Of a DNA stretch of 50,454 nt, positions 20,991 to 36,773 are shown piece after piece; the first letter of the stretch is position 1; every line of letters starts with the position of its first letter. Made by a program: the position numbers and the translations under genes. The stretch lies in contig JANOTI010000018.1 in assembly GCA_031416255.1 (NCBI GenBank), forward strand, positions 1 to 50,454, in the 5' to 3' direction. The DNA is from Sphingomonadales bacterium. Lineage in GTDB: Bacteria > Pseudomonadota > Alphaproteobacteria > Sphingomonadales > Sphingomonadaceae. The notes under the pieces were generated by a model, which was given only the letters and a program-made list of their open reading frames with translations, made no database searches and had not been told where the DNA came from.

Positions 20991-22775
<1,785 letters not shown>

Positions 22776-22906: not shown

Positions 22907-23425
22907 TTACGCACCAGGCAACCGGTAATAATCAGCCAAGCGGTCCAGCGCGATCCGCAGCACGAGCTTACCCGAACGTGCGGGCCAGCCCATCGATTTC
23001 TCCGCCACCGGCATAGCCTCGCCCGCGCAGATTACGCGCCACGCGATGTCGGACAGATCGCGCCCTAACGCCGCAACACCGCCATCGAAACGCTGCTTTG
23101 CATTCAACATCCGGTCGGTCGGATTGCCATGCGATGGCGCACTTCGTTTACCACGCGCCATCGCCATATGCTCCCAAGACATCGTTACACGCGGTGCCAG
23201 CCCACCCTGTTCAAAATCACTGCGCAGTTTTTCACCAGCCAAAAACTGGCGGTCGGTCAAATGACCATATGTGTGAAGCCAGGCTAAAGGAGACTCAGCC
23301 AAGTTTACCGTTACGGTTCGTTTGGGGCGTTTCGAATGGCTGCGACCGAACTCAGGATCGGGTAAAGCACGCTCTACCAATGGCCTTGGATCTTGAAACA
23401 CTGGGGCGGTCGATTTTTTGCGCAT
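22907..23425 (-). CDS. DUF6456 domain protein (GafZ / GafA C-terminal-like GTA activator candidate)
   Basis: NLAESPLAWL..HL..RQFLAGEKLRSDF and E..MGWPARSGKLVLRIALDRL motifs; AAGGAG RBS. Confidence 0.8.
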   Translation of the reverse strand: MRKKSTAPVFQDPRPLVERALPDPEFGRSHSKRPKRTVTVNLAESPLAWLHTYGHLTDRQFLAGEKLRSDFEQGGLAPRVTMSWEHMAMARGKRSAPSHGNPTDRMLNAKQRFDGGVAALGRDLSDIAWRVICAGEAMPVAEKSMGWPARSGKLVLRIALDRLADYYRLPGA

Positions 23426-23439
23426 ACTATCTCCTTTAG

Positions 23440-23504
23440 ACGAATCATCACAAACGACTTGCCAATGACGTGCGTTTGTAGGACAGTAAAAAACCTATTT
23501 GGTT
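23440..23504. promoter_or_regulatory. Divergent DUF6456/XRE control region
   Basis: ACGAATCAT 23440-23448; ACAAACG/CGTTTGT inverted repeat 23450-23479; TTTGTAGGACAG 23475-23486; AACC-N5-GGTT 23492-23504. Confidence 0.65.
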
Positions 23505-23514
23505 GGAGAAAGAC

Positions 23515-24078
23515 ATGCTCAGCCGCGTTCGCGAAGTGCGCAAAGCCAAACGCCTCACCCTGTTCGACGTTGCCGAACGCTGTGATCCGCCGACAACAGC
23601 CCAAACCATCGGACGTCTGGAAACAGGCATGCGTACATTGTCACTAGGCTGGTTGAACCGCATTGCCGGTGCACTTGGGGTTGATGCCAGCGAACTGGTT
23701 CAATTGCCCGATCAGCAAGAGCTACCCGTAGCAGCGTATCTTGGCGTCGATGGGGCACAAGCTCCTGCAAAGGCCGATCTGCTGCTTGCACCGCGCCTTC
23801 TAGGCAAAATGCTGGGCTTACGCGTTACTGACAGCATTGGCGATTACCGGCGCGGGGATGAGCTTTGGTTAGAGCAGCTATCGCCTGAACATTTTGGCGA
23901 AGCGCTGAATTGCGATGTTCTGGTGCCCCGTCCAGCAGGGCGCTTTCTCTTTGGTCGGCTGCTAGGGCGCGAAGATGGCAAGTTGCATCTGCTGCCACTG
24001 GCGGCGGGGGCAAGACAACAAGTCGTGGCTGATCCTGTGTGGATCGGGCGCGCCGTCAAGCTTGTCCGCTCGCTCTAA
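23515..24078 (+). CDS. XRE-family HTH transcriptional regulator with S24-like C-terminal domain
   Basis: VREVRKAKRLTLFDVAE..TTAQTIGRLETG.R.LSL.WL..IA.ALGV; start at ATG 23515 after GGAG. Confidence 0.9.
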   Translation: MLSRVREVRKAKRLTLFDVAERCDPPTTAQTIGRLETGMRTLSLGWLNRIAGALGVDASELVQLPDQQELPVAAYLGVDGAQAPAKADLLLAPRLLGKMLGLRVTDSIGDYRRGDELWLEQLSPEHFGEALNCDVLVPRPAGRFLFGRLLGREDGKLHLLPLAAGARQQVVADPVWIGRAVKLVRSL

Positions 24079-25244
24079 TGCGGGTTCTGTCACTCTCAAC
24101 CCTCCACCCTTCATCCGCCGCGCCGAATTTTGGGCGCTTCGTGCAATTGTCGCTGGATGCCGCTGACTCAACGGGTGAGGCTGACATTGTTCGCATGTGC
24201 CCGAACGGCTTGCCGCCTTGGCCATTGGGCCATATCCACCCACGCTATCGCGGCGCGGCCGCGTTGCCGTTGCAGGACAGAGCCGTCCATCGGCCGCATT
24301 TCACGCTGATCCCTGGCCTTAATGCGAACAGGAACGCTCGTTCCATTGCTAAGGCTGTAATCCCATTGGCGCGCGCATTGCATGCCGAACAAGCGTTCGA
24401 TCTGGTTGATGCCCAGTTTTTCTGGCCCGATGGCCCTGCAGCGAAGCAGATCGCCGACGAACTTGGGCTGCCCTATTCGATCAAAGCACGCGGGTCAGAC
24501 ATTCACTATTGGACTACGCGTGGCGGATGCCGCGAACAAATTGTCGATGCGGCGCACGGTGCCGCTGGTTTGCTCGCCGTGTCCGAAGCCATCAAGTGCG
24601 ACATTGCGGCGCTTGGCGTCGATCCGGCAAAAATATTGGTGCACCGAACTGGCATTGACCGTTCGCTCTTTCAGGTCGCGACCGAACCAAGAGCGGACCT
24701 TCGCCAGCGGATTGACTTACCAACCGATGGCAATTTGATCGTCACAGTCGGCGCTCTCATCCCGCGCAAAGGGCAGTTGTTTGCCATTGAGGCCTTGGTT
24801 CAAATTCCCGATGCGCGTCTAGCCATCATCGGCGACGGACCCGATCTAGCTATGTTACGGCAATTAGCTCAGGATCAGGGGGTTTCGGATCGAGTGCATT
24901 TCCTTGGTTCGTTGCCGCATAGCGAAATTGCCCGCCACGTACAGGCCGCTGACGTCTGTGTACTGCCATCGGAAAACGAAGGCATTGCCAATGCCTGGAT
25001 CGAGGCTCTGGCGTGCGGCACGCCGTTGGTCATTACCGATGCTGGCGGCGCGCGCGAAGTTATTACAGGGGACGCAGGCGGACGGATCGTTGAGCGCAAG
25101 GCAGGCGCTATAGCCAAAGCTGTGCGCGACCTGCTGCGAACACCGCCCGAACGCACCGATGTAGCATCCGTCGTTGCGGACTATAGCTGGGAACGAAATG
25201 GCAAAGCGTTGGTCGCCTTTTGGCGGTCAATAGCCTCTGCCTAG
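24078..25244 (+). CDS. GT4 family glycosyltransferase
   Basis: DAQFFWPDG, KARGSD, VGALIPRKG, LPSENEGIANAWIEALACG; TAATG coupling to the XRE gene. Confidence 0.92.
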   Translation: MRVLSLSTLHPSSAAPNFGRFVQLSLDAADSTGEADIVRMCPNGLPPWPLGHIHPRYRGAAALPLQDRAVHRPHFTLIPGLNANRNARSIAKAVIPLARALHAEQAFDLVDAQFFWPDGPAAKQIADELGLPYSIKARGSDIHYWTTRGGCREQIVDAAHGAAGLLAVSEAIKCDIAALGVDPAKILVHRTGIDRSLFQVATEPRADLRQRIDLPTDGNLIVTVGALIPRKGQLFAIEALVQIPDARLAIIGDGPDLAMLRQLAQDQGVSDRVHFLGSLPHSEIARHVQAADVCVLPSENEGIANAWIEALACGTPLVITDAGGAREVITGDAGGRIVERKAGAIAKAVRDLLRTPPERTDVASVVADYSWERNGKALVAFWRSIASA

Positions 25245-25276
25245 TGGCTTTCCGATTACCCTATACAAGCATCAAA

Positions 25277-25399
25277 ACCGTTCGTGCTGAGTAGCTGCAG
25301 AGGCCGAAAGGCCGAGGTGGCGTATCGAAGTACTGATGGTGCAGAAACCCTTCGATTCGGCACTTCGCTTCGCTCAGTACCTACTCAGGGCAAAAGGGT
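25277..25399. repeat. Palindromic intergenic repeat, type B copy 1
   Basis: ACCGTTCGTGCTGAGTAG...TATCGAAG ... CTTCGA...CTACTCAGGGCAAAAGGGT; homologous to 39410-39530. Confidence 0.88.
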
Positions 25400-25429
25400 T
25401 TAATTACTTCAACCCTAATAGAACGCTTC

Positions 25430-26410
25430 CTAAACCACACCTTCGCTGTTGTTGTTCAACTTGCTCAGTTTAACTGTTTCCGCAGGAACAAAGCTGTCCT
25501 GCGTGACTTTCAGCCAGATCAAAATCGGTGCCGCTTGATAGATTGACGAGTAGCTGCCGACGAAAATACCAAATGCCATCGCAACGCTAAATCCAAAGAT
25601 TACATCCGGACCAAAGAACACCAACACCACCAAAGGCGTCAGGATTGTTAAGCTGGTCATGACTGTACGCGACAGTGTTTCGTTGACCGAAAGATCAAGC
25701 AAAGCTGTGATATCCATCTTGCGGTACTTTTTCAGGTTTTCGCGAATCCGGTCATAAATAATGATGTTATCATTCAGCGAATAGCCAATGATCGTCAGCA
25801 AGGCTGCGATGGTATTGAGGTCAAACTCCATCTGCGTTAGCGAAAATAGCCCTAATGTGATCACCACATCGTGGACCAACGCCCAGATCGCACCCACCCC
25901 GAATTGCCATTCAAACCGGAACCATATGTAAAGCCCAATGCCGATTGATGCGGCGACAAGTGCCATGATACCGTCGGAAAACAGCTCGCTGGATACTTTG
26001 CCCGATACCGAATCCACCCCATCAATGCGGACAGTCGGATGCTTGACTTTAAGCGTGGCGACAATCTTATCGGCCATTGCATTGGCCAGTTCGGGTTTTT
26101 TATCCGCGCCATCGGGCAGCTTCATCCGGATCGAAACCTGATTTTCCGCACCGAAACGCTGAATAGTCGGATCGCCATACCCAAGCGAACCAATGGTGTT
26201 GCGCAGCTCCTCCACCGGAGCGATTTTTTCGCCAACAAAGGTTGTACGGATCATTTGGCCACCGATAAAATCGACGCCGTAGTTCAACCCTTTGGTGAAC
26301 AGCAACGCCATCGACGCCACCATCAGCAGGATCGAAACGCTAAACGCGATGTTCCGCCATTTGAGGAAACCGATATTGGTATCGTCGGGCACGAGTTTCA
26401 GGAGTTTCAT
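25430..26410 (-). CDS. secF: Protein translocase subunit SecF
   Basis: GVDFIGG, IWFRFEW, GYSLND...DRIREN; start at ATG 26410. Confidence 0.97.
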   Translation of the reverse strand: MKLLKLVPDDTNIGFLKWRNIAFSVSILLMVASMALLFTKGLNYGVDFIGGQMIRTTFVGEKIAPVEELRNTIGSLGYGDPTIQRFGAENQVSIRMKLPDGADKKPELANAMADKIVATLKVKHPTVRIDGVDSVSGKVSSELFSDGIMALVAASIGIGLYIWFRFEWQFGVGAIWALVHDVVITLGLFSLTQMEFDLNTIAALLTIIGYSLNDNIIIYDRIRENLKKYRKMDITALLDLSVNETLSRTVMTSLTILTPLVVLVFFGPDVIFGFSVAMAFGIFVGSYSSIYQAAPILIWLKVTQDSFVPAETVKLSKLNNNSEGVV

Positions 26411-26421
26411 AGTCCAGAGCC

Positions 26422-28020
26422 TCAAATATGGATTTCTTGGGGACGGTTGCGCTTCAACCAAATAGCAACCCACATGCGGGTCAGCGTGACTGCAGTGAAC
26501 ACCGACGTGACAATACCGATCATCAGAACGACGGCGAAGCCTCGGATCGGTCCAGAACCGATGAAGAACAGCAAGGTCGCCGCAATAACGTTGGTAATGT
26601 TCGCATCGAAAATCGCACGGCTGGCTTCGGAATAGCCATGTTCGACCGCCAGCGCAACACGGCGCCCTCGCCGTCGTTCCTCGCGTATGCGTTCGTTAAT
26701 AATGACGTTAGCGTCCACCGCAGCGCCGATAGTCAAAACAAAACCAGCAATACCCGGCAGTGTCAGAGTCAAATTGGCTATCGCCATCACGGCAAGGATC
26801 ATCACAACGTTTGTGATCAGCGCAAAACACGAATAAACTCCAAACCGCCCATAAGCGAGCAGCATCCATACAAGCACGCCAGTCGTCCCGATCATTGCCG
26901 CAATCATCCCGCGGCGGATTGAGTCTGCGCCAAGATCAGGCCCGACCGAGCGTTCCTCAACCACTTTAAGATCAACAGGCAAAGCGCCGGAGTTTAGTGC
27001 GATCGCCAACTGGTTGGCGCTATCTACCGTAAAACTACCCGAAATTTGCGATGTGCCGCCAAGAATGGCCTCGTTGATCTGCGGAGCCGAGATTACCTTT
27101 CCGTCCAGTATGATCGCGAACAGTTTGCCAGTGTTCTGCTGCGTCATCCGCGCAAATTTTTGCCCGCCTTCGCTGTTGAATTGAATAATAACGACAGGCT
27201 CGTTCGTTTGCTGGTCATAGCTTTGCTGAGCGCCTGTCAATTGGTCGCCCTTAATGCCCCCAAGACGCCGGACAGCGATAAAGGGAATGCCGCTGGGATT
27301 GCTTGGATACGGCAAAGCCTGACTGCCAACGCGCGCTTTGCCTTTCAGCGTATCGTCTGGATTTGCAGCTTCATCAACCAGCTTAAACTCCAGCTTAGCC
27401 GTTTCGCCGATGAGCTTCTTAAGCGCTTCGGGATCTTCAAGTCCCGGAACCTGCACGACTATACGGTCCGCACCCTGACGAATAATTGTCGGCTCCAGCG
27501 TGCCAAGCGCGTTGATCCGGCGGTCGATGACGTCTTTGGCTGAATCCATAGCGCGGTTCAGTGAATCTGTGCGTCCGGTTCCTGCCGGGTTGAGGGTAAT
27601 GCGGTTCCCGTCGGTGATCTCGATATTCCAGTCACGTCCACCCTGATTGTTGGCGACAACCGGTTCAAGCGCTTTACGGGCCGCATCGATTTTGTTCGCT
27701 TCGGTGACAAGAAAGCTCAGCTTTCCGTCTGTGCGTGTAACGGTGTCGATGTCAATTTTGGGCTCTGCGCGGCGCATTGCCGTGCGAACGCTGTCTTCTA
27801 GCGATTCCAGCCGGTCACGCTCCAATTGTGCACGATCCGCTTCTAGCAAGATGTGGCTACCGCCAGCAAGGTCCAGACCGAGATTGATCGTTGGTGTCGC
27901 TAACCAGGACGGCGCAAGGTCGAGCGTCGTTTTGGGGAGGAAACTGGGGATAGAAAGCAGGATGGAGAACGCAATTAAAGCGTGCAACATCCAGATACGC
28001 CAGCGAGGAAAATCGAGCAT
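26422..28020 (-). CDS. secD: Protein translocase subunit SecD
   Basis: LGLDLAGG, RRINALG, AVDANVIINERIREE. Confidence 0.97.
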   Translation of the reverse strand: MLDFPRWRIWMLHALIAFSILLSIPSFLPKTTLDLAPSWLATPTINLGLDLAGGSHILLEADRAQLERDRLESLEDSVRTAMRRAEPKIDIDTVTRTDGKLSFLVTEANKIDAARKALEPVVANNQGGRDWNIEITDGNRITLNPAGTGRTDSLNRAMDSAKDVIDRRINALGTLEPTIIRQGADRIVVQVPGLEDPEALKKLIGETAKLEFKLVDEAANPDDTLKGKARVGSQALPYPSNPSGIPFIAVRRLGGIKGDQLTGAQQSYDQQTNEPVVIIQFNSEGGQKFARMTQQNTGKLFAIILDGKVISAPQINEAILGGTSQISGSFTVDSANQLAIALNSGALPVDLKVVEERSVGPDLGADSIRRGMIAAMIGTTGVLVWMLLAYGRFGVYSCFALITNVVMILAVMAIANLTLTLPGIAGFVLTIGAAVDANVIINERIREERRRGRRVALAVEHGYSEASRAIFDANITNVIAATLLFFIGSGPIRGFAVVLMIGIVTSVFTAVTLTRMWVAIWLKRNRPQEIHI

Positions 28021-28059
28021 GATAGTACCAGACTTAAATATTTTGCGCGGCTGCGCGGA

Positions 28060-28398
28060 TCAATCGTTGGCAGGTTTGGTATTACGGCTTTTAACATCTG
28101 ACAACATTGATTTCAAAGCCTTAACGCGAACGTTAGGCGCAATCTCAACCTCAATATAGTCATCTGCGACCTTTATTACTTTGCCCATCAGTCCGCCACC
28201 CGTGACGACTTCATCATTTTTCTGAACCGCGTTCAATTTTGCTTCATGCTCTTTCGCACGCTTTTGCTGCGGACGGATCAGCAGGAAATAAAACACGACA
28301 AAGATCAACAGCAATGGAACGATTTGCATAAAAAAACCTGCAGCGCCTGCACCACCGGTGCTGCCTGTAGCAGCCGAGAAAACCAGCATAGAAGTCAT
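28060..28398 (-). CDS. yajC: Preprotein translocase subunit YajC
   Basis: FYFLLIRPQQKR, DEVVTGGGLMG. Confidence 0.96.
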   Translation of the reverse strand: MTSMLVFSAATGSTGGAGAAGFFMQIVPLLLIFVVFYFLLIRPQQKRAKEHEAKLNAVQKNDEVVTGGGLMGKVIKVADDYIEVEIAPNVRVKALKSMLSDVKSRNTKPAND

Positions 28399-28604
28399 TA
28401 TCGTTCGTCCCCATATTATCGTGTTGGCCCATATAACGGCTGGGCGCGCCTATTCCAAGGGCGGGCCGTTATCATGACGCCAGAATGCGCGCAACGGATA
28501 ACGGGTTTGCACCTTGCTTTTAACAAATGCTGTCCATATAGGCCCGAGCATATTGATGCGGTTTCGCAGCACTGGAAATTTCCAGTGTGAAATCGCCTCA
28601 CGGT

Positions 28605-28681
28605 CGGGACGTAGCGCAGCCTGGTAGCGCATCACACTGGGGGTGTGGGGGTCGGAGGTTCGAATCCTCTCGTCCCGACCA
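28605..28681 (+). tRNA. tRNA-Pro (GGG)
   Basis: CGGGACG/CGTCCCG acceptor stem, anticodon loop CT-GGG-GG, GTTCGAATC T-arm, encoded CCA; 77 nt. Confidence 0.97.
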
Positions 28682-28826
28682 ATTTTATTCATTCACAGCA
28701 TCGCAGAATATATTGCTTTTGCGCGGGATCGGTTCTCACTGCTGGTTTGTCCCATCGATATTTCGGCTAGCCCGGACAAAACTGTTTCTATACAGCTTTG
28801 TGCATTCACCAATATCGGGATGGACA

Positions 28827-30107
28827 ATGCTTCAAAGCATCAAAGGCAGGATTGGGCAGTACCCCGTGTGGAGTGCGCTGATTATCCTGATCGCAGCAAT
28901 TGCGATCTATAGCATCATCACCCCGACACCCCGCGAGTATGAATATGTCAGTGAAGCCGCGTCGCGTGGTGAGGTAACGCGCAGTGTTTCTGCAAGCGGC
29001 AAAGTACGCGCGTTAAATACCATTAAAGTCGGTGCCGAAGTTTCCGGCCAGATCACCAAAGTGTATGTGGATTTTAACACACGGGTAACCGCTGGGCAGA
29101 TATTGGCAGAAATCGACCCCACCAGAGTTCGCGCACGGGTTGAACAGTCCGAAGCACAAGTCGCTTTGACGAAAGCAAATTTGCAACAGGCTACCGCTAA
29201 CGTAAACCGCTCACGCGCCGATCTTGAAATTCAAGAGCGCGATTTTGCTCGGCAAAAGGCGTTGGCTGATCGAGGTTTTGTTTCAAAAGCGGGACTCGAT
29301 GCTGCGCAGAGCAAACTCAATTCCGCTCGCAATGCTGTGCAGGTGGCGTTGGCTCAGTCGCAAAGCGGGAACGCACAAATCCGCCAAGGCATAGCAGAGC
29401 TATCCTCGGCAAAGCTGGACCTTAGCCGCACTCTGATTGTAGCCCCTGCAAGCGGCGTGGTGATAAACAAGCTGGTTGAACCCGGAACAACCGTTGCTGC
29501 GTCATTCCAAACGCCAAACCTGTTCGAAATCGCGTCTGATACTACAAAGATGCAGGTCGAGGCATCGGTTGACGAAGCCGATATCGGCCAAATTCGCGAG
29601 GCGCAAAACGTTAATTTTACGGTTGATAGCTATCCCGATTATGTCTTCAAAGCCAAAGTCCGGCAGGTGCGGCAAGCGCCAGTCGAGACCCAGAATGTTG
29701 GCAGCTATCTGGTGATAATCGATGTCGATAAACTGGACGGCAAGCTACTGCCGGGTATGACTGCCAATGTTGAAATTATTACTGGCACCAAATCGAACAT
29801 TTTGCGCGTTCCTACAAACGCGCTCCGCTTTCGCCCCCGTGCAGAGGATCGGGAGAAAGTCGTAAAGGGCAAAACGCCCGGTAGCCCTGCCAAAAAAGAA
29901 GATCCCCGCCCGGTTTTGTATCTCGCAACAAAGGACGCCTATAAACCCGTCAAAAAACCCGTCAAAATCGGACTAGAAGGAGATGAATATACCGAAATCC
30001 TTTCCGGAATAAAATCCGGCGATAAAGTTTTGGTTCGTGCGAAATCGTTGAAACCCAAATTGACGCCCAATTCCGATGCGGAAGACGATGACGCCACCGC
30101 TTCTTAG
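28827..30107 (+). CDS. Efflux periplasmic adaptor subunit (MacA-like)
   Basis: VGAEVSGQI, IVAPASGVV, VDEADIG, LLPGMTA; start reassigned to ATG 28827 because the longer ORF overlaps the tRNA. Confidence 0.92.
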   Translation: MLQSIKGRIGQYPVWSALIILIAAIAIYSIITPTPREYEYVSEAASRGEVTRSVSASGKVRALNTIKVGAEVSGQITKVYVDFNTRVTAGQILAEIDPTRVRARVEQSEAQVALTKANLQQATANVNRSRADLEIQERDFARQKALADRGFVSKAGLDAAQSKLNSARNAVQVALAQSQSGNAQIRQGIAELSSAKLDLSRTLIVAPASGVVINKLVEPGTTVAASFQTPNLFEIASDTTKMQVEASVDEADIGQIREAQNVNFTVDSYPDYVFKAKVRQVRQAPVETQNVGSYLVIIDVDKLDGKLLPGMTANVEIITGTKSNILRVPTNALRFRPRAEDREKVVKGKTPGSPAKKEDPRPVLYLATKDAYKPVKKPVKIGLEGDEYTEILSGIKSGDKVLVRAKSLKPKLTPNSDAEDDDATAS

Positions 30108-30801
30108 CACCAACGCGCTGGTTAAAGATTATGTGATCGGCGGCGAAACTGTGCACGCGGTAAACAACGTCTCGCTGTCAATTGCGCGCGGCGAATTTGT
30201 CGCTATCATGGGCGCAAGCGGTTCGGGCAAATCGACTTTCATGAATATGATCGGGTGTCTGGATGTGCCAACATCGGGCACATTGCTGCTCGATGGTACC
30301 GATACCAAACTGCTGAGCAGCGATGAGCTGGCAGAAATTCGCAACCGCAAAATCGGATTTGTGTTTCAGCAGTTCAATCTTCTGGCGCGAACCAGTGCGC
30401 TGGATAATGTCGCGGTGCCGTTAATCTATGCAGGCCTTGGCTATGCTGAACGGCGCGAGCGATCGAAAGCAAAGCTGGAGGCACTGGGGCTTGGCGACCG
30501 GCTGGAAAATACACCGGCCAAGCTATCGGGTGGCCAGCAGCAACGCGTTGCCATCGCGCGTGCGCTTGTGACCGATCCTTTGATGTTGCTCGCCGACGAG
30601 CCAACGGGAGCGCTCGATACACAAACTTCACTCGATATAATGAGCATTTTTCAGCGGTTGAACGACGACGGGATCACGGTGGTTGTGGTCACCCATGAAC
30701 CGGATATCGCCGAATATGCCGCACGCAGGATTATTTTCCGCGACGGCAAAGTCATAGAGGACGAGGCAGTGAAATCGCGCCGACGGGCCGCCACTGCATG
30801 A
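30088..30801 (+). CDS. ABC transporter ATP-binding protein (MacB/LolD type)
   Basis: [33 protein letters not shown]. Confidence 0.95.
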
Positions 30802-32048
30802 CGCGGTTTTTGAACCCCATCGCCGATTGGGGCGTCAACGTTGCGATTGCTATGACCGCACTGCGCACCAATTTGATGCGGTCGATTTTGACGACGCTTG
30901 GCGTAATGATTGGTGTTTTTTCTGTGATCCTTGCGGTGGCGGTTGGAAATGGTGCGCAGGTATCGGTGACGCAACAAATCGCTACGCTTGGTTCAAACAT
31001 GGCGATTGTTGTTCCCGAACCCGACAACGGCGACGGCCCACCCCGCCCACGTGAGCGAGGAAGATTGACCGAGCGCGATGCCAAAGCGATTGAACGGCAA
31101 GTTCCTGGCGTCAACGCCGTCGCACCACAAATCCGCAACAGCGTGCAAGTGGCAACAGCGGGACGAAATGTAACAACCTTGGCCGTTGGGGCAACGCCTG
31201 CTTATGGCATAGTTTCCAACATCACCGCATCTGATGGCCGGTTTTTGACCGATAGCGATGTCGGCTCTGCGGCCCGGGTCGCTGTCATTGGCGAAACTGT
31301 TGCACGCAGAATTTTCCAAGACGCAAATCCTGTGGGACAGACGATCCGGATCAATCGCGTGCCGTTTGCTGTCATTGGAATATTGGAGAGCAAAGGCAGC
31401 AATCTGGGCAGTGACAACGATGACCAAATTATTGTTCCAATCTCGACATTGCGCCAGCGGCTTTCAACCAGCGCCGCACAGGGGCCCGACGATATCCAGC
31501 TGATGTTTGTAGGCTTTGATGACGAAGAGGCTTTGATTGCTGGACAAAAGGAAATCAAAACCCTGTTACGAGCGCGTTACCGCGTTGCAAAAGGCAGCGT
31601 AAATCCGTTCACAGTCCGGACCACAACCGAGATTGCCGAGGCGACAGGTCAAGTCACGCAGATTTTTCAGGCGGTTCTGGTCGCCATTGCGTCAATCTCG
31701 TTATTGGTCGGAGGCATCGGAATCATGAACATCATGCTCGTCAGCGTGACCGAGCGCACCCGCGAAATCGGGCTGCGTATGGCTTTGGGGGCCAAAAGGC
31801 GCGATATCCGCAACCAGTTCCTAGTTGAGGCTGCTGTTTTGTGCGTCATCGGCGGCGCAATGGGCCTGGCTCTTGCGGTACTAGCGGCCATAACCTTTCA
31901 GCGCATAGCGAATTTCCCTGCGCCGATTGGATGGGACACAGCGGCGATGTCTGTTGCTTTCTCCGCAGTCATTGGCTTGGTCTTTGGCGGCTATCCAGCG
32001 ATCAGAGCCTCGCGGTTATCGCCGATAGAGGCGCTGCGTAGCGAGTGA
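30798..32048 (+). CDS. ABC transporter permease (MacB type)
   Basis: RSILTTLGVMIG, VGGIGIMNIMLVSVTERTREIG, PIEALR. Confidence 0.95.
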   Translation: MTRFLNPIADWGVNVAIAMTALRTNLMRSILTTLGVMIGVFSVILAVAVGNGAQVSVTQQIATLGSNMAIVVPEPDNGDGPPRPRERGRLTERDAKAIERQVPGVNAVAPQIRNSVQVATAGRNVTTLAVGATPAYGIVSNITASDGRFLTDSDVGSAARVAVIGETVARRIFQDANPVGQTIRINRVPFAVIGILESKGSNLGSDNDDQIIVPISTLRQRLSTSAAQGPDDIQLMFVGFDDEEALIAGQKEIKTLLRARYRVAKGSVNPFTVRTTTEIAEATGQVTQIFQAVLVAIASISLLVGGIGIMNIMLVSVTERTREIGLRMALGAKRRDIRNQFLVEAAVLCVIGGAMGLALAVLAAITFQRIANFPAPIGWDTAAMSVAFSAVIGLVFGGYPAIRASRLSPIEALRSE

Positions 32049-32077
32049 TTTTGAGATGGTGATTCACTATCGACTAT

Positions 32078-32163
32078 ACCGTTAGTGCTGAGCTTGTCGA
32101 AGCACGCCCCAAGGCATAGCGCCACCCTGATGGACGCCCTTCGACAGGCTCAGGGCTAACGGT
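32078..32163. repeat. Palindromic intergenic repeat, type A copy 2 (inverted relative to copy 1)
   Basis: ACCGTTAGTGCTGAGCTTGTCGAAG ... CTTCGACAGGCTCAGGGCTAACGGT; spacer homologous to the reverse complement of copy 1. Confidence 0.9.
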
Positions 32164-32183
32164 TTTATTAAAAACTTTGACCT

Positions 32184-33152
32184 TTAACCAGCAATCCGCG
32201 CCCGTACTGCCTCAGCCTGCGCCATAATGTTTCGCACCAATTCGGCGCAGGTCGGGATGTCGTGGATCAACGCTTGGCTCTGCCCGCTGGTCCAGATGCC
32301 ACCATCGGTATCGCCATCGCGCAGCACATTGTCACGGCCGCGCTTGCCCGCCATCAACTCGCGGACTTCTTCGAATGTTTTTGTTGGGTCGCGTTGAATC
32401 GCGGCCACTTCTTCAGAGACTGCGTTGCGCGCGACGCGGGCAGTATTGCGCAAGCTGCGACCAACCAGCACAGTATCCAGCTCATCGCTATCGACAATCT
32501 TCTGCTTCACATTCTGGTGAATTTTGGCCTCAACGGTCGCACAAAAACGCGTCCCCATGTTGACCCCGGAAGCCCCCAGAGCGAGCGCCGCGACAAGGCT
32601 ACGCCCATCCGCCATCCCGCCGCTGGCGATGATCGGAACACCAGGCAAGGCATCGACGGTCGCAGGCAACAGCACGACCAAGCCGACATCGTCTTCGCCC
32701 GGATGCCCTGCACATTCAAAGCCATCAATGCTGATAATATCGACACCCTTTTTGACCGCCGACACCGAATGGCGGACGCTGGTGCATTTGTGGATAACGG
32801 TAACGCCATTGTCCTTAAAACGCGGCAGATGATCTGTCGGTGCGCGGCCTGCGGTTTCAACTATCTTGATTCCCGATGCGATAATCGCTTCGCGGTAGTC
32901 GTCATAGGGGATCGGGTTGATCGACGGCAGCAATGTCAGGTTCACGCCAAAGGGCTTGTCGGTTAGTCCGCGTGTCTTTTCAATCTCGTCAAACAGCGCT
33001 TGGCCGCTATCAAACATGTGTGCGGTAATAAAACCCAGCGCGCCCGCATTGGCGACCGCCGCGACCAATTCGCCATAGCCGACGCCGGTCATTCCGCCCA
33101 TCAGGATCGGGGTTTCAACACCGAACATTTCGGTGATGCTAGTTTTGAACAT
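32184..33152 (-). CDS. Nitronate monooxygenase / FabK-like flavin oxidoreductase
   Basis: AVANAGALG, DGFECAGHPG, IASGGMADG, VNMGTRF. Confidence 0.9.
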   Translation of the reverse strand: MFKTSITEMFGVETPILMGGMTGVGYGELVAAVANAGALGFITAHMFDSGQALFDEIEKTRGLTDKPFGVNLTLLPSINPIPYDDYREAIIASGIKIVETAGRAPTDHLPRFKDNGVTVIHKCTSVRHSVSAVKKGVDIISIDGFECAGHPGEDDVGLVVLLPATVDALPGVPIIASGGMADGRSLVAALALGASGVNMGTRFCATVEAKIHQNVKQKIVDSDELDTVLVGRSLRNTARVARNAVSEEVAAIQRDPTKTFEEVRELMAGKRGRDNVLRDGDTDGGIWTSGQSQALIHDIPTCAELVRNIMAQAEAVRARIAG

Positions 33153-33179
33153 ATTTCTCTCCTGATCGTAATCGCGGCA

Positions 33180-34415
33180 TCACCGCCCCGTTGGCAAATC
33201 CTTGAAAGGCAAATCCTTGTCAACGCGGATATCGCCGGGCATTCCCAATACCCTCTCGGCGATAATGTTGCGCAAGATTTCGTCTGTGCCGCCGGCGATC
33301 CGCATTCCGGGCGCACCCATCACCATATCCTGAAACGCACCGCCGGCTGCAGCGTATTTCGGATCGGTGATGATCCCGAACTGGTCTTGCAATTCCAGCA
33401 TCTCGTTCGCCATATCCTGCGCGCTGGCTGCTTGAATCAGCTTTGATACCGATGCCTCTGGCCCCGGTGTTTGGCCGCGCGATAATGCCGTCAACGAACG
33501 CAATCCGGTAAAGCGAAGCCCCTCGCCGCGCACATACCAATCGGCCAGTTTTTCGCGAAATGCGCGATCCGTAGACAAAGGCGCGCCGTCCTCATCGGTC
33601 ATTTTTTGCGCCAGTTTCAGCGCACTTAGTGCCCCACCACCCGGTGCTCCGCGCCCGCCGCCAACCGAGGCACGTTCGTTCATCAGTGTGACGATGGAGA
33701 CTTTCCAGCCATCGTTCAATGCGCCCAGCCGCTGGCTGTCCTTCACGCGGACATCGGTGAGGAACACCTCGTTAAAACCGCGTGCGCCGGACATTTGATG
33801 GATCGATTTGCACTGGATACCCGCCGACTTCATGTCGATCCAGAACATCGTCAGCCCTTTATGCTTCACCGCATCGGGATCGGTGCGGACAAGCAGTATG
33901 CCGTAATCGGAATAATGCGCGCCGCTGGTCCAGATTTTCTGGCCGTTGATGACCCATTCGTCGCCATCTTTGATCGCCTTTGTGCGGATCGCGGCAACAT
34001 CGGAGCCGCCAGCGGGTTCGGAGAACAGCTGACACCACAGGTCTTCACCGCGCACGGCGGGGCCGATGAAGCGAGCTTTGGTTTCCTCATCCGCAGTTGC
34101 CATCACCGTCGGGATGCACATACCAAGGCCAATCGCGAACGGCCCGCCGAGATTAACGCCAAGCCGCGATTCTTCTTGCCCAAAAATCACGCTTTCAATT
34201 GTGGAGCCGCCACCGCCGCCCCATTCTTTGGGCCAGCGAATTTGTGCGTAGCCAGAGGCGGCTTTCTTCGCCTGCCATGCTTTGCACGCGATCAACAGCT
34301 CGGGATCTTCATCGCCGAGCGAGACGCCTTTGATGCCGCGCGGTGCGTTTTCCTCAAGCCATGCGCGCACTTTGACGCGGTATTCGGCTTCTGATGGGGT
34401 GTCGTTGAAGTCCAT
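33180..34415 (-). CDS. Acyl-CoA dehydrogenase (catalytic-type subunit)
   Basis: WCQLFSEP..GSD, NGQKIWTS, TLMNER, IAGGTDEILRN. Confidence 0.93.
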   Translation of the reverse strand: MDFNDTPSEAEYRVKVRAWLEENAPRGIKGVSLGDEDPELLIACKAWQAKKAASGYAQIRWPKEWGGGGGSTIESVIFGQEESRLGVNLGGPFAIGLGMCIPTVMATADEETKARFIGPAVRGEDLWCQLFSEPAGGSDVAAIRTKAIKDGDEWVINGQKIWTSGAHYSDYGILLVRTDPDAVKHKGLTMFWIDMKSAGIQCKSIHQMSGARGFNEVFLTDVRVKDSQRLGALNDGWKVSIVTLMNERASVGGGRGAPGGGALSALKLAQKMTDEDGAPLSTDRAFREKLADWYVRGEGLRFTGLRSLTALSRGQTPGPEASVSKLIQAASAQDMANEMLELQDQFGIITDPKYAAAGGAFQDMVMGAPGMRIAGGTDEILRNIIAERVLGMPGDIRVDKDLPFKDLPTGR

Positions 34416-34427
34416 GGACTTGTCTCC

Positions 34428-35543
34428 TTAGGCAGCGTTGCTGCGTTCCAACATTGTAACCAAACGGTGTTTCCAGCTGCGCGGGCTGCCTGCAACGACG
34501 GAAAGCTGGCGGCTGCGGCGGTAATGCAGGTGGCAATCGACCTCCCACGTATAGCCCATGCCGCCATGCACCTGGACGTTTTCTTTCGAACCAAACCAAT
34601 AAGCATCCGATGCCGAAATCCGCGCGCCAGCCGCCGCAATCGGCAATTCGGGCGCATCGCTGTTCAGCGCCCATGCGCCGTAATAGGCATTGCCGCGTGC
34701 CAATACATTCTTGGCATACATGTCCGCCAGCCGATGCTTTATCGCCTGATAGCCGCCGATTTGGCGACCAAAGGCAAAGCGTTCGAGCGCATAAGCGCGC
34801 GCCATTTCAAGGCACATGTCGGAACCGCCGAGCTGTTCGAATGCTATTAGCACAGCGGCGCGGTCGTTGATCGCTTCGTAGAGCGCCAAGCCATCGCCGA
34901 TTGCGCCGAGGCGCGAGGCGGGGGCGTCTTTGAACGCGATACGCGCCGCGTCACGAGATCGGTCGAGCGTTTCCATCGTTTCGCGAGACACGCCTTCGCC
35001 GTTAAGGTCGACAAGGAACAAAGTTGGCTTTCCGCCTTCATTGGCCAGTACAATCGCGTGGTCGGCTATGCTGCCATCGGTGACTGGGATTTTAACACCG
35101 GTCAGTTTACCACCCGATACTTCAGCCGACAATTTCGATGCCGAAACAGGGCCCGTGCCTTCCGAGCTGGCGATCGTTCCGATCAATTCACCCGAAACGA
35201 TCTTCGGCAAATATTCGGCCTTTTGCACAGCATCCCCTGCCCGCAACAAAGCCTCGGCAAAGAAATAGACCGTTGATGCAAACGGGATAGGTGCAACGGC
35301 GCGGCCCAGCTCCTCGGCAATGCAGCACAGTTCCAGATAGCCAAGGCCGAGGCCGCCATGTTCTTCAGGTATCGCAGCACCCAGCCAGCCCTGTTCGGCG
35401 ACTTGCGCCCATAATGTCCGGTCCACGCCAGGGCTGTCGTCTTCCATCAGCTTGCGTACAGTGTCGGGCGGACACTTCGCAGCGAGGAATTTCCGCGCCT
35501 CGTCCTTCAGCGCCAGTTGGTCGTCGGAAAAATCAAAATTCAC
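34428..35543 (-). CDS. Acyl-CoA dehydrogenase (partner subunit)
   Basis: GTG start after GAGGAG; R.AFGRQIGGYQAIKH, QVHGGMGYTWE. Confidence 0.92.
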   Translation of the reverse strand: MNFDFSDDQLALKDEARKFLAAKCPPDTVRKLMEDDSPGVDRTLWAQVAEQGWLGAAIPEEHGGLGLGYLELCCIAEELGRAVAPIPFASTVYFFAEALLRAGDAVQKAEYLPKIVSGELIGTIASSEGTGPVSASKLSAEVSGGKLTGVKIPVTDGSIADHAIVLANEGGKPTLFLVDLNGEGVSRETMETLDRSRDAARIAFKDAPASRLGAIGDGLALYEAINDRAAVLIAFEQLGGSDMCLEMARAYALERFAFGRQIGGYQAIKHRLADMYAKNVLARGNAYYGAWALNSDAPELPIAAAGARISASDAYWFGSKENVQVHGGMGYTWEVDCHLHYRRSRQLSVVAGSPRSWKHRLVTMLERSNAA

Positions 35544-35614
35544 GCGCGCACTCTCCTCAGCAACTGTTTGTATGTGCACCTTCATACGCCATTCACGCTA
35601 TCGGGCAACGCAAA

Positions 35615-35632
35615 TTTAATCGTGTGATTAAA
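35615..35632. promoter_or_regulatory. Inverted repeat TTTAATC-N4-GATTAAA upstream of the acyl-CoA dehydrogenase operon
   Basis: Perfect 7-4-7 palindrome in an AT-rich intergenic region. Confidence 0.45.
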
Positions 35633-35682
35633 GTTTATTGTTACTAGCCAACTTCTTCCCCATACTTTTTTTGGATTTTTCT

Positions 35683-35720
35683 CTGTCCTACAAATAACCA
35701 CATTGGTTATTATGATTCGT
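35683..35720 (+). promoter_or_regulatory. Putative GH108-holin promoter/operator
   Basis: CTGTCCTACAAA 35683-35694; AATAACCA-CAT-TGGTTATT 35693-35711; -10-like TATGAT 35711-35716; ATGATTCGT 35712-35720. Confidence 0.7.
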
Positions 35721-35751: not shown

Positions 35752-36300
35752 ATGGACAAGGCAAATATCAACGACCTGATTGAAGAACTGATCGAACGCG
35801 AAGGCGGCTATGTGAACCATGCTGCAGATCGCGGCGGCCCGACCAACTGGGGTATCACCGAAGCAGTTGCGCGGCGTCAGGGCTATGTCGGCGCTATGCA
35901 CGCAATGCCAAAAAGCGATGCCGCGGCGATTTACAAACGGCTGTATTGGTTATCCCCGCGCTTTGATGCGGTTGCGGAACGCGCGCCAAGGCTTGCCGCA
36001 GAAATGTTTGATACCGGCGTCAACATGGGGACCGGCACAGCAGTAGGCTTTCTGCAACGCGCGCTGAATGCTCTCAACCGCAACGGCTCTGATTACACCG
36101 ACATTTCGGTCGATCGCGCCATCGGTTCTGCCACAATCGCCGCGCTCGACGCGTTTCTAAATAAGCGCGGCTCTGGCGCAGAGGCCGTTCTGTTGAAAGC
36201 CGCCGAAGCACTGCAAGGCGCACATTATTTGAAAATCGCTGAAGCGCGCCCTTCACAAGAAGCCTTTGTCTATGGCTGGCTCGCCAACCGGATTGGCTAA
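35752..36300 (+). CDS. Glycoside hydrolase family 108 muramidase with C-terminal peptidoglycan-binding domain
   Basis: EGGYVNH..DRGG.TNWGIT catalytic motif, FDTGVNMG, F.YGWLANR. Confidence 0.93.
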   Translation: MDKANINDLIEELIEREGGYVNHAADRGGPTNWGITEAVARRQGYVGAMHAMPKSDAAAIYKRLYWLSPRFDAVAERAPRLAAEMFDTGVNMGTGTAVGFLQRALNALNRNGSDYTDISVDRAIGSATIAALDAFLNKRGSGAEAVLLKAAEALQGAHYLKIAEARPSQEAFVYGWLANRIG

Positions 36301-36359: not shown

Positions 36360-36773
36360 ATGCCCTTAATCGAAACTCTGATCGGCCCACTTGCGGCCCT
36401 AATCGACAAGCTTATCCCCGATCCTAAAGCCCGCGATGCGGCCAAGCTGGAGCTTATCAAGCTGCAAGGCGGCCAAGACCTAGAGACCCTGCAAACGCAA
36501 CTGTCCGCGATCCTTGCCGAGGCACAGGCACCAGATCCATGGACCAGCCGCGCACGGCCTTCATTCCTTTATGTGATGTATATTATCATTCTTTGGTCGT
36601 TGCCGATGGGCCTGATAGCCGCGTTCCGCCCACAAGCTGCTACCGATATTGCAACGGGAATGAATGCCTATCTGTCTGGCCTGCCAGAGCCGCTTTATGC
36701 ATTATTCGGTACCGGATATCTTGGCTATACAGCGGCACGGCAGTGGGGAAAGGTTAAGGGCGTGGAGAGATAA
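36360..36773 (+). CDS. 3TM holin (GTA-release holin family-like)
   Basis: IDKLIPDP, EAQAPDPWTSRARP, hydrophobic helices, YLGY..R..GK..G tail; directly after the lysin. Confidence 0.85.
   Translation: MPLIETLIGPLAALIDKLIPDPKARDAAKLELIKLQGGQDLETLQTQLSAILAEAQAPDPWTSRARPSFLYVMYIIILWSLPMGLIAAFRPQAATDIATGMNAYLSGLPEPLYALFGTGYLGYTAARQWGKVKGVER

Follow-up and report, generated by a model that had tools for sequence, protein, structure and literature searches.

Shared promoter elements of dispersed gene transfer agent genes in Sphingomonadaceae point to control by a CI-like repressor and a GafZ homolog

Background

Why should a regulatory locus and a lysis cassette lying 12 kb apart carry the same short sequence elements in front of their genes? 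The question is raised by a stretch of 50,454 nucleotides from a Sphingomonadales bacterium of the family Sphingomonadaceae (GenBank assembly GCA_031416255.1, contig JANOTI010000018.1, positions 1 to 50,454; this whole stretch is "the window" below), in which a gene for a DUF6456 protein, homologous to the gene transfer agent (GTA) regulator GafZ, is divergent to a gene for an XRE-type regulator, and an endolysin gene and a holin gene are found further along. An earlier note on this DNA reported three motifs common to the two promoter regions, namely a 12-mer, the palindrome AACC-N5-GGTT and the 9-mer ATGATTCGT, and proposed that both loci belong to one dispersed regulon with a repressor operator, an activator or antiterminator site and a possible methylation input.

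DUF6456/gafA homologs have been reported in 196 of 208 GTA-bearing genomes, and the GTA genes of Sphingomonadales as those under the strongest selection for efficient translation among the alphaproteobacterial orders; the consulted portions of that study describe no promoter motifs or repressor (PMC9765227). A literature search, in which subscription journals were thinly covered, found no paper on the regulation or circuitry of Sphingomonadales GTAs. We compared the source genome (G000; 2.59 Mb, 279 contigs, 94.5% complete) with 120 relatives, giving a set of 121 Sphingomonadaceae genomes (some named Sphingomonas, Sphingopyxis or Alteraurantiacibacter), and with an outgroup of 248 alphaproteobacterial genomes from other families. 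DUF6456 was detected in 109 of the 121 family genomes, the holin in 91 and the large terminase in 94. Related genomes share ancestry, so Fisher values computed from the counts below overstate significance.

A composite motif marks dispersed GTA genes

When the 9-bp core of the 12-mer (T[GT]TCCTACA, "the box" below) and the palindrome were searched for together as the exact composite T[GT]TCCTACA-N2/3-AACC-N5-GGTTA, 91 matches were found in 61 of the 121 Sphingomonadaceae genomes, against none for the reversed pattern that served as the control; the 248 outgroup genomes contained no match. Forty-eight of the 91 sites lie at most 1.3 kb upstream of a holin gene. Among the other 43, one belongs to the source genome (contig C187), two were omitted and 40 were fetched: 21 of these precede small-terminase-like genes (18 recognized by tblastn and 3 by eye), two precede lysins, one a spike-base gene scoring above the NCBIfam cut-off, and five a related spike-base-like family of 115-120 aa (two of which were scanned, both falling below the cut-off). 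Altogether, 78 of the 89 examined sites precede GTA-type genes (lysis, small-terminase-like or spike-base), and in the holin loci of relatives the motif stands upstream of whichever lysis gene comes first. What was seen directly is the presence, position and conservation of the motifs, their target genes, the gene content of the genomes and its correlated loss. We conclude that the motifs are almost certainly shared promoter elements of dispersed Sphingomonadaceae GTA genes forming one regulon, much as the earlier note had supposed, with the two conserved motifs placed before regulator, lysis and accessory genes.

The three motifs did not fare equally. The 12-mer lies exactly where it had been reported, at 23486-23475 (minus strand) and 35683-35694; two window matches compare with none in 100 shuffles, and the source genome has three against 0.06 expected under a 4th-order Markov model, the third copy lying within coding sequence. 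Its conserved part is only the 9-bp core, with the flanking C and AA varying among 62 sites, and of the GG and T-run said to precede both copies, the instance on the gafZ side is merely the right arm of the palindrome. The palindrome is likewise confirmed at 23492-23504 and at 35696-35708, here inside a perfect 8-3-8 palindrome (35693-35711); the window holds three matches against 0.48 expected, the third at 21824 within an ABC-F gene. The 9-mer ATGATTCGT is present at both reported positions and was rejected as a motif: two window matches are reached in 13 of 100 shuffles, the source genome has four against 7.5 expected, and none of the counted promoter sets of relatives contains it, so that its recurrence is best ascribed to chance. 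Conservation in relatives thus holds for box and palindrome and fails for the 9-mer. The box alone occurs 18 times in the source genome against 8.5 expected, a mild excess that includes one copy before ftsH and further single-box sites on contigs C234, C207, C235, C245 and C279.

The earlier note had predicted matches at the head-gene cluster and at tail-fibre promoters. A palindrome with one mismatch does precede the head genes on contig C206 of the source genome. A 30-position pattern of the lysin promoter, with up to 6 mismatches allowed, matched the source genome only at that promoter and at G000:C187:2767, a site preceding a stand-alone small-terminase-like gene (phrog_4044, E 2e-12). For the second prediction, support comes from this accessory gene and from spike-base genes in relatives; spike-base homologs were not found in the source genome with the queries used. 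A scan of IMG/VR with a shortened composite returned 29 stretches, none with a tblastn match to the GTA queries and many with other flanks, and was uninformative.

The small-terminase-like paralogs (phrog_4044; e.g. L002:1975-2730 on the minus strand, and loci L124-L163) are the commonest targets outside lysis and often have leaderless starts. Some genomes carry 4-5 composite sites. A family of 142-144 aa proteins under the composite (L127, L138), with no NCBIfam or PHROG match, is a candidate new GTA accessory gene.

Layout of the two loci

The gafZ-like gene (22907..23425, minus strand) encodes a DUF6456 protein of 172 aa (Pfam PF20057, E 8.5e-39) with 37% identity over 139 aa to GafZ of C. 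vibrioides (E 9e-22). It lacks the N-terminal extension of Caulobacter GafZ and has no gafY upstream. A long Caulobacter-like extension is kept in some family members (L005, L006, L009, L021, L032), most being short. The divergent gene (23515..24078, plus strand) encodes a 187-aa XRE regulator with a helix-turn-helix (HTH) domain (Pfam HTH_3) and an S24-like C-terminal domain, of the CI/LexA fold: its structural model (pLDDT 92) gave as best Foldseek matches the lambda/186 repressor and LexA (E 6.5e-6 to 5.6e-4). In the 30 best-scoring gafZ loci of the family, which underlie the gafZ-locus counts that follow, xre is divergent to gafZ without exception.

Between the two genes, the box TGTCCTACA (23477..23485, minus strand) occupies the -35 region of the predicted gafZ promoter and is found, as T[GT]TCCTACA, beside gafZ in 29 of 30 relatives. 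The operator-like palindrome (23492..23504) lies upstream of this -35 region, where it also covers the predicted start of xre; ACC-N5-GGT is present at the gafZ locus in 25 of 30 relatives, at a distance from the box that varies from 4 to 9 nt. A weak gafZ -10, CAAGTC after TGG (23456..23461, minus strand), is predicted 15 nt past the box, in the same register as at the lysis promoters; the spacing from box to TGGCAA is 12 in all 24 loci in which both were found. The predicted xre promoter, TTGCCA-17 nt-GACAGT (23459..23487, plus strand), would overlap that of gafZ, and TGGCAAG is retained in 4 of 7 loci that have lost gafZ. A 7-bp inverted repeat (ACAAACG...CGTTTGT) was also seen by eye across the gafZ promoter at 23450-23479, and was not noticed in relatives.

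At the lysis cassette, which consists of a GH108 endolysin with a PG_binding_3 domain (35752..36300, plus strand; Pfam PF05838, PF09374) and a GTA_holin_3TM holin (36360..36773, plus strand; PF11351, E 1.2e-27), the box TGTCCTACA is found at 35684..35692 (plus strand) in the -35 region. Among the 30 best-scoring holin loci, 26 have the box, and the palindrome is exact in 19 and relaxed in 23. The palindrome (35696..35708) overlaps the -10 with its right arm. TATGAT, taken as the lysin -10 by the earlier note, had to be given up: the family register points to TATTAT (35708..35713, plus strand), which begins within that arm. Of 21 small-terminase-like targets, 16 have their first ATG 5-8 nt past the hexamer that begins with the TA of GGTTA; this spacing agrees with leaderless transcripts and places the -10 in the right arm. 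Where TTGACA replaces the box, it stands 17 nt before that same TA; the box therefore fills the -35 region, 14-15 nt before the -10. Two architectures can thus be proposed, with the putative operator upstream of the -35 region (gafZ and the head cluster) or over the -10 (lysis, spikes and terminase paralogs).

The palindrome as a putative XRE operator

The element called a repressor operator in the earlier note is supported as an operator-like palindrome, and its predicted reader is the divergent CI-like XRE, which very probably recognizes AACC-N5-GGTT. The palindrome is located at the predicted start of xre itself. The recognition helix is nearly invariant within the family, and it covaries with the sequence upstream: of 95 loci with a ..GRLE helix, 85 have ACC-N5-GGT within 130 nt upstream, as compared with 2 of 27 loci with ..SRLE or ..SRIE, five of which have ACG-N5-CGT within the same distance (more do so within 220 nt). 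In this count three loci had no tblastn match and two no readable helix, and duplicates and short flanks were removed. The palindrome also persists when gafZ is gone, being exact in 5 of 7 genomes that have kept xre and lost gafZ.

The XRE protein was considered as an ortholog of the Caulobacter repressor RogA and rejected as such. It has no match in C. vibrioides at E 0.1, and BLASTP detects no similarity to a 213-aa HTH/S24 protein of that species, taken as RogA by its length and domains; profile comparison gives a remote match (71% probability, E 3.6e-5). The presumed RogA in turn has weak matches in 2 of 61 family genomes. Neither GGAA nor TTCC, the halves of the RogA site GGAA-N4-TTCC, occurs in 23425-23520. 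An autocleavage dyad of Ser and Lys is characteristic of CI/LexA repressors; in our alignment, as judged by eye, the Ser position of XRE varies and the Lys position reads G-R-L.

Outside the family, a homologous XRE with the ..SRLE helix is divergent to gafY-gafZ in several other alphaproteobacterial families (L165, L168, L171, L177, L226, L227, L236, L237), and several of these loci have an ACG-N5-CGT palindrome, which makes it a candidate GTA repressor beyond Sphingomonadaceae. At L165 and L168 gafY is preceded by GTTC-N7-GTTC, the form found before recA in most of 30 loci, which suggests that in that family the GTA is under SOS control. A distant XRE at L193 (genome G278), with a ..QIGRLE helix, has AACC-N5-GGTT before a TTGACA promoter near a weak DUF6456 match, and is possibly a prophage relative. 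At L325 (G045), where gafZ has gone, xre is directly divergent to the large-terminase gene, with TTGACT and an operator-like site over the -10.

The box as a putative GafZ site

In Caulobacter, GafZ works together with GafY, an activator that resembles domain IV of DnaA. A GafY profile, which scores 9e-32 with C. vibrioides GafY as positive control, detected only DnaA in the source genome; it gave one long-frame match per genome in 116 of the 121 family genomes, and weak second matches in the other five. Since no GafY was found, something else must serve the promoters that lack a consensus -35.

We consider GafZ the probable reader of the box. On a quick XRE tree gafZ has been lost about six times, of which at least four losses are forced. 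Beside the xre genes that remain, the box is exact in none of 7 loci, compared with 29 of 30 relatives with gafZ. At the lysis promoters, TTGAC has appeared with the palindrome kept in all three gafZ-less genomes that have both xre and the lysis cassette (G059, G025, G120); it is found in only 2 of 49 gafZ-bearing genomes, 20 of which had been picked because the exact composite is absent, and 14 of these 20 still show TCCTAC. This decay beside xre and the exchange for TTGAC after loss of gafZ make dependence of the box on GafZ likely.

Published work on related activators is compatible with such a role. In Rhodobacter capsulatus the C-terminal part of GafA binds a fragment of the gafA -35 region, and a GafA that has lost its N-terminal domain remains able to activate the gafA promoter (PMC9638019), while GafA also binds the lysis promoter (PMC6363796). 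A consensus -35 was reported to render the Caulobacter cluster promoter independent of GafYZ (PMC11150451). A fold search with the GafZ model gave nothing at E 0.001 or below, the only matches being weak ones to sigma region-4 domains, all with E above 0.6.

The box was also considered as a recA or general stress element and rejected, the recA match of the source genome being conserved in 0 of 30 loci. RpoH and EcfG promoters have known consensus sequences, and the box was likewise rejected as an RpoH -10 or an EcfG -35 for want of a fixed partner hexamer by eye.

The head-gene cluster

In the source genome, GTA head genes are found on contig C206, and homologs of neck and tail genes on C229 and C122 (tblastn with a cluster from the same genus). 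RcGTA has a head-tail cluster comprising small and large terminase, portal, protease, capsid, neck, tail and g12-g15, with lysis and activator loci apart from it, and makes particles that package random host DNA. By this layout, with its lysis and activator loci lying among host genes, the system is an RcGTA-like GTA, known here from its genes, with particle production presumed; PF13547 (GTA_TIM) had no match.

In the head promoter of the source genome, a one-mismatch palindrome is followed after 8 nt by a consensus TTGACA; the box is absent, and the spacer contains TCGTCACGCTG. The palindrome lies about 50 bp upstream, as in the gafZ promoter. We collected 40 head promoters (one from the gafZ-less G059) by a palindrome and TTGAC upstream of a terminase gene; the distance between operator and TTGACA, which the search pattern confined to 7-10 nt, is 7-10 nt, across an AT-rich linker. 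In the source genome CGCTG occupies positions 7-11 of the spacer, the register of the GafZ-binding element (ZBE) of the Caulobacter cluster promoter (published supplement), where a mutation deleting CTG of CGCTG abolished GafZ binding (PMC11150451). CGCT is found at spacer positions 7-10 in 31 of the 40 head promoters; the comparison is 31 of 39 with gafZ against none of four gafZ-less genomes that keep the cluster. This distribution suggests that the equivalent of the ZBE is located at the head cluster, outside the window.

The leader following the head promoter of the source genome contains a 10-bp hairpin and a T-run, and terminator-like leaders were found in 20 of 39 gafZ-bearing loci (2 after shuffling). 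Of the activator or antiterminator site claimed by the earlier note, a second, activator-like site stands, in the form of the box; loading of an antiterminator at the lysin promoter does not, the element in ZBE register being the CGCTG of the head-cluster promoter. The lysin palindrome in particular was rejected as a ZBE: its spacer contains no CGCTG, and the palindrome persists without gafZ.

Promoter-proximal pause elements are used by Q-type antiterminators. The head promoters (L064-L093, L367-L396) show a conserved GGAAC, then ATCG or GCTG, directly past the -10, which may be such an element. At L088 (G076) the head-cluster promoter has the 9-bp box in place of TTGACA, with the CGCT element directly after it. 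In G041 four palindrome-plus-TTGACA sites surround a split terminase region (C3:657660-683784).

GANTC sites near the predicted starts

As the earlier note had pointed out, both window promoters have GANTC in a TGATTCG context: at 23442..23446 (minus strand), about +3 of the predicted gafZ start, and at 35714..35718 (plus strand), between the lysis -10 and the predicted start. YGAKTCG near the start is a mark of GcrA-activated promoters. GANTC is enriched near start sites in the family: a copy no more than 40 nt from the -10 was found in 15 of 25 promoters for lysis, 11 of 25 for gafZ, 11 of 40 for accessory genes and 17 of 36 for the head cluster, where the background is 6-7% and recA promoters give 5 of 27; the promoter sites are mostly [CT]GANTCG. 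In the same 17 of 36 head promoters it is at a fixed 26-27 nt from the start of the -10. Both gcrA, incomplete at the end of a contig, and a gene for a ccrM-like methyltransferase are present in the source genome, and a CcrM/GcrA methylation input at the GTA promoters is plausible. The lysin promoter departs from GcrA/CcrM activation as published: GcrA sites were reported at -20, -30 and +5 to +30 (PMC9976885), whereas the lysin GANTC, at about -6 to -2, falls outside these windows.

Alternative explanations

Chance, or promoter sequence of a generic kind, can practically be dismissed as the source of the shared motifs. The palindrome alone is indeed common genome-wide, with 110 strand-hits across the source genome, and so is the 9-mer; of the 40 fetched composite sites, nine have no clear downstream gene and two precede unannotated genes, which weighs against the GTA reading, but the composite is absent from the control and stands before GTA-type genes at 78 of the 89 examined sites. 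Binding of the palindrome by CtrA or another global regulator, instead of XRE, is very improbable. TAACC is similar to half of a CtrA site, and in R. capsulatus the gafA promoter is bound by CtrA, at TTAAC-N6-GTAAC (PMC6363796); however, the inverted N5 geometry is unlike the tandem CtrA site, the palindrome lies at the start of xre itself, and it tracks the XRE helix, including that of homologs outside the family and of the distant XRE at L193. Recognition by XRE has its own difficulties. The helix/operator covariation is suggestive only, because the tree places the change of helix in a single event; two SRLE-type loci, together with L229 and L313, bear CC-type palindromes; and two family members with the helix TAVTIGRLE have no palindrome upstream, yet AACC-type sites at their targets. 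A variant in which XRE acts in two ways, like lambda CI, activating where the operator is near -50 (gafZ, head) and repressing where it covers the -10 (lysis, spikes, terminase paralogs), so that assembly would precede lysis, would account for the two operator architectures, the second of which lysis and spike genes share, and for the narrow spacing and AT-rich linker at head promoters. We regard it as quite unlikely: the variable spacing at gafZ (4 to 9 nt) does not look like a stereospecific contact, a consensus -35 is already present in the head promoter, and in gafZ-less genomes operator-like sequences are seen by eye inside the head-promoter spacer, a repressing position.

For the box, an unlikely candidate is another factor, such as a host activator or an alternative sigma factor, with GafZ being the antiterminator of the head cluster only; the regulon and the XRE operator would be unaffected. 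Caulobacter GafZ is reported to have a single ChIP target (PMC11150451), and the box is mildly over-represented in the source genome, with its copy before ftsH. The box and CGCTG are also unlike, and one small HTH protein would need to read two dissimilar sequences; in G059, which has no gafZ, a small-terminase-like gene (L128) still has one full composite in front of it. Further points weigh against recognition by GafZ: two gafZ-less loci retain 8 of 9 box letters, the exchange for TTGAC at lysis promoters rests on two lineages, any element of a gafZ promoter would decay beside xre once gafZ was lost, and G104 (94% complete) keeps a holin box although neither gafZ nor xre was found in it. The contrast in leader terminators between gafZ-less (0 of 4) and gafZ-bearing loci does not reach significance (p 0.11), and 2 of the 4 gafZ-less leaders match a looser stem pattern. 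Against another factor, on the other hand, stand the switch to TTGAC in all three gafZ-less genomes, the lack of the box from 30 of 30 recA upstream regions and the lack, by eye, of a conserved TTG 14-16 nt upstream of CCTA, which a promoter of RpoH type would need. We therefore prefer the pairing of XRE with the palindrome and of GafZ with the box.

A proposed circuit and its relation to known systems

Taken together, these pairings lead to a model that we favor, with slightly less assurance than the reading of the box itself, in which XRE represses all GTA promoters and GafZ replaces GafY and antiterminates the head cluster. The pairing of proteins with sites, whether each acts positively or negatively, the start sites and particle production are here all predictions from sequence comparison. 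XRE would directly repress gafZ, the head cluster, the lysis cassette, the accessory genes and itself through the palindrome; relief of this repression would start positive feedback of GafZ through the box; and GafZ, taking over from GafY, would use the box to switch on gafZ itself together with the lysis and accessory genes. The head cluster has a consensus -35, and there GafZ would instead load at the CGCTG in the spacer and antiterminate through the leader terminator, as in Caulobacter, the loop ending in particle production and lysis. GANTC near the starts may add a CcrM/GcrA input. A sharper version, for which the chances are about even, is a two-protein switch that differs from both the Caulobacter and the Rhodobacter circuit: a CI-like repressor sits on every GTA promoter, GafZ both supplies -35 recognition as a stand-in for sigma region 4 and antiterminates, the position of the operator sorts early from late genes, and lineages that lost gafZ restored TTGACA. 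If so, the composite would read out the GTA regulon of any genome of the family, including stand-alone and often leaderless small-terminase paralogs.

The system can hardly be called undescribed in the strong sense used by the earlier note, as it looks like a rewired variant of published GafA/GafYZ control. With the Caulobacter RogA-GafY-GafZ-IHF system (PMC9632790, PMC11150451), whose IHF site is placed between that of the activator and the core promoter, it shares a GafZ homolog, the CGCTG in ZBE register, a terminator-like hairpin after the cluster promoter, a CI/LexA-like repressor predicted to cover the promoter of the activator and dispersed accessory targets. Unlike Caulobacter, the sphingomonads have no detectable GafY; their repressor is only a remote homolog of the presumed RogA, with the predicted operator AACC-N5-GGTT instead of GGAA-N4-TTCC; this putative operator is found on all GTA promoters, whereas RogA is reported to bind at gafYZ and a single further promoter only; a consensus -35 stands before the cluster; promoters of gafZ, lysis and accessory genes have the 9-bp box in their -35 region; and there is a holin-endolysin cassette, of which C. 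crescentus has none. R. capsulatus and its RcGTA (PMC6363796, PMC9638019) offer the DUF6456 domain, autoregulation via the -35 region and an activator at the lysis promoter (the last two predicted here), a holin of the GTA_holin_3TM family and a holin-associated muramidase as points of likeness. There, however, GafA is GafY fused to GafZ, under CtrA and GtaR, while the sphingomonads have only the C-terminal part and a dedicated divergent repressor. According to PMC11150451, no nucleotide-level site for GafA has been published.

The comparison with phage lambda concerns the logic of the circuit. CI acts on palindromic operators, and the Q antiterminator loads between -35 and -10 and overrides a leader terminator. 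The sphingomonad locus resembles this in its divergent CI-fold repressor with a putative palindromic operator, its predicted Q-like loading site and its terminator-like leader; it differs in being host-domesticated and dispersed over the chromosome, in S24 catalytic residues that look degenerate by eye, and in an antiterminator that appears to act at the -35 region too.

The analysis names a candidate repressor and a predicted operator for the sphingomonad GTA, and, for the C-terminal domain of GafA/GafZ, a candidate site at nucleotide level in autoregulated and lysis promoters, which is unmapped in Rhodobacter. The composite motif also serves to locate dispersed GTA accessory genes, and the repeated compensation in cis after loss of the regulator is a clear example of a domesticated phage circuit being rewired.

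Additional observations

The only other site in the source genome at which the palindrome is followed, after 7 nt, by a -35-like hexamer (TTGACC) is G000:C16:11299, inside an ORF on the opposite strand. On contig C206 the portal gene (L003:2846-4873, minus strand) is fused in frame to an Endonuclease_NS_2 domain, giving a protein of 675 aa; the portal protein of a relative from the same genus is unfused and has 396 aa. The fused gene is followed by an unannotated gene for a protein of 173 aa (L003:2389-2910, minus strand), and the two resemble a polymorphic nuclease-immunity pair.

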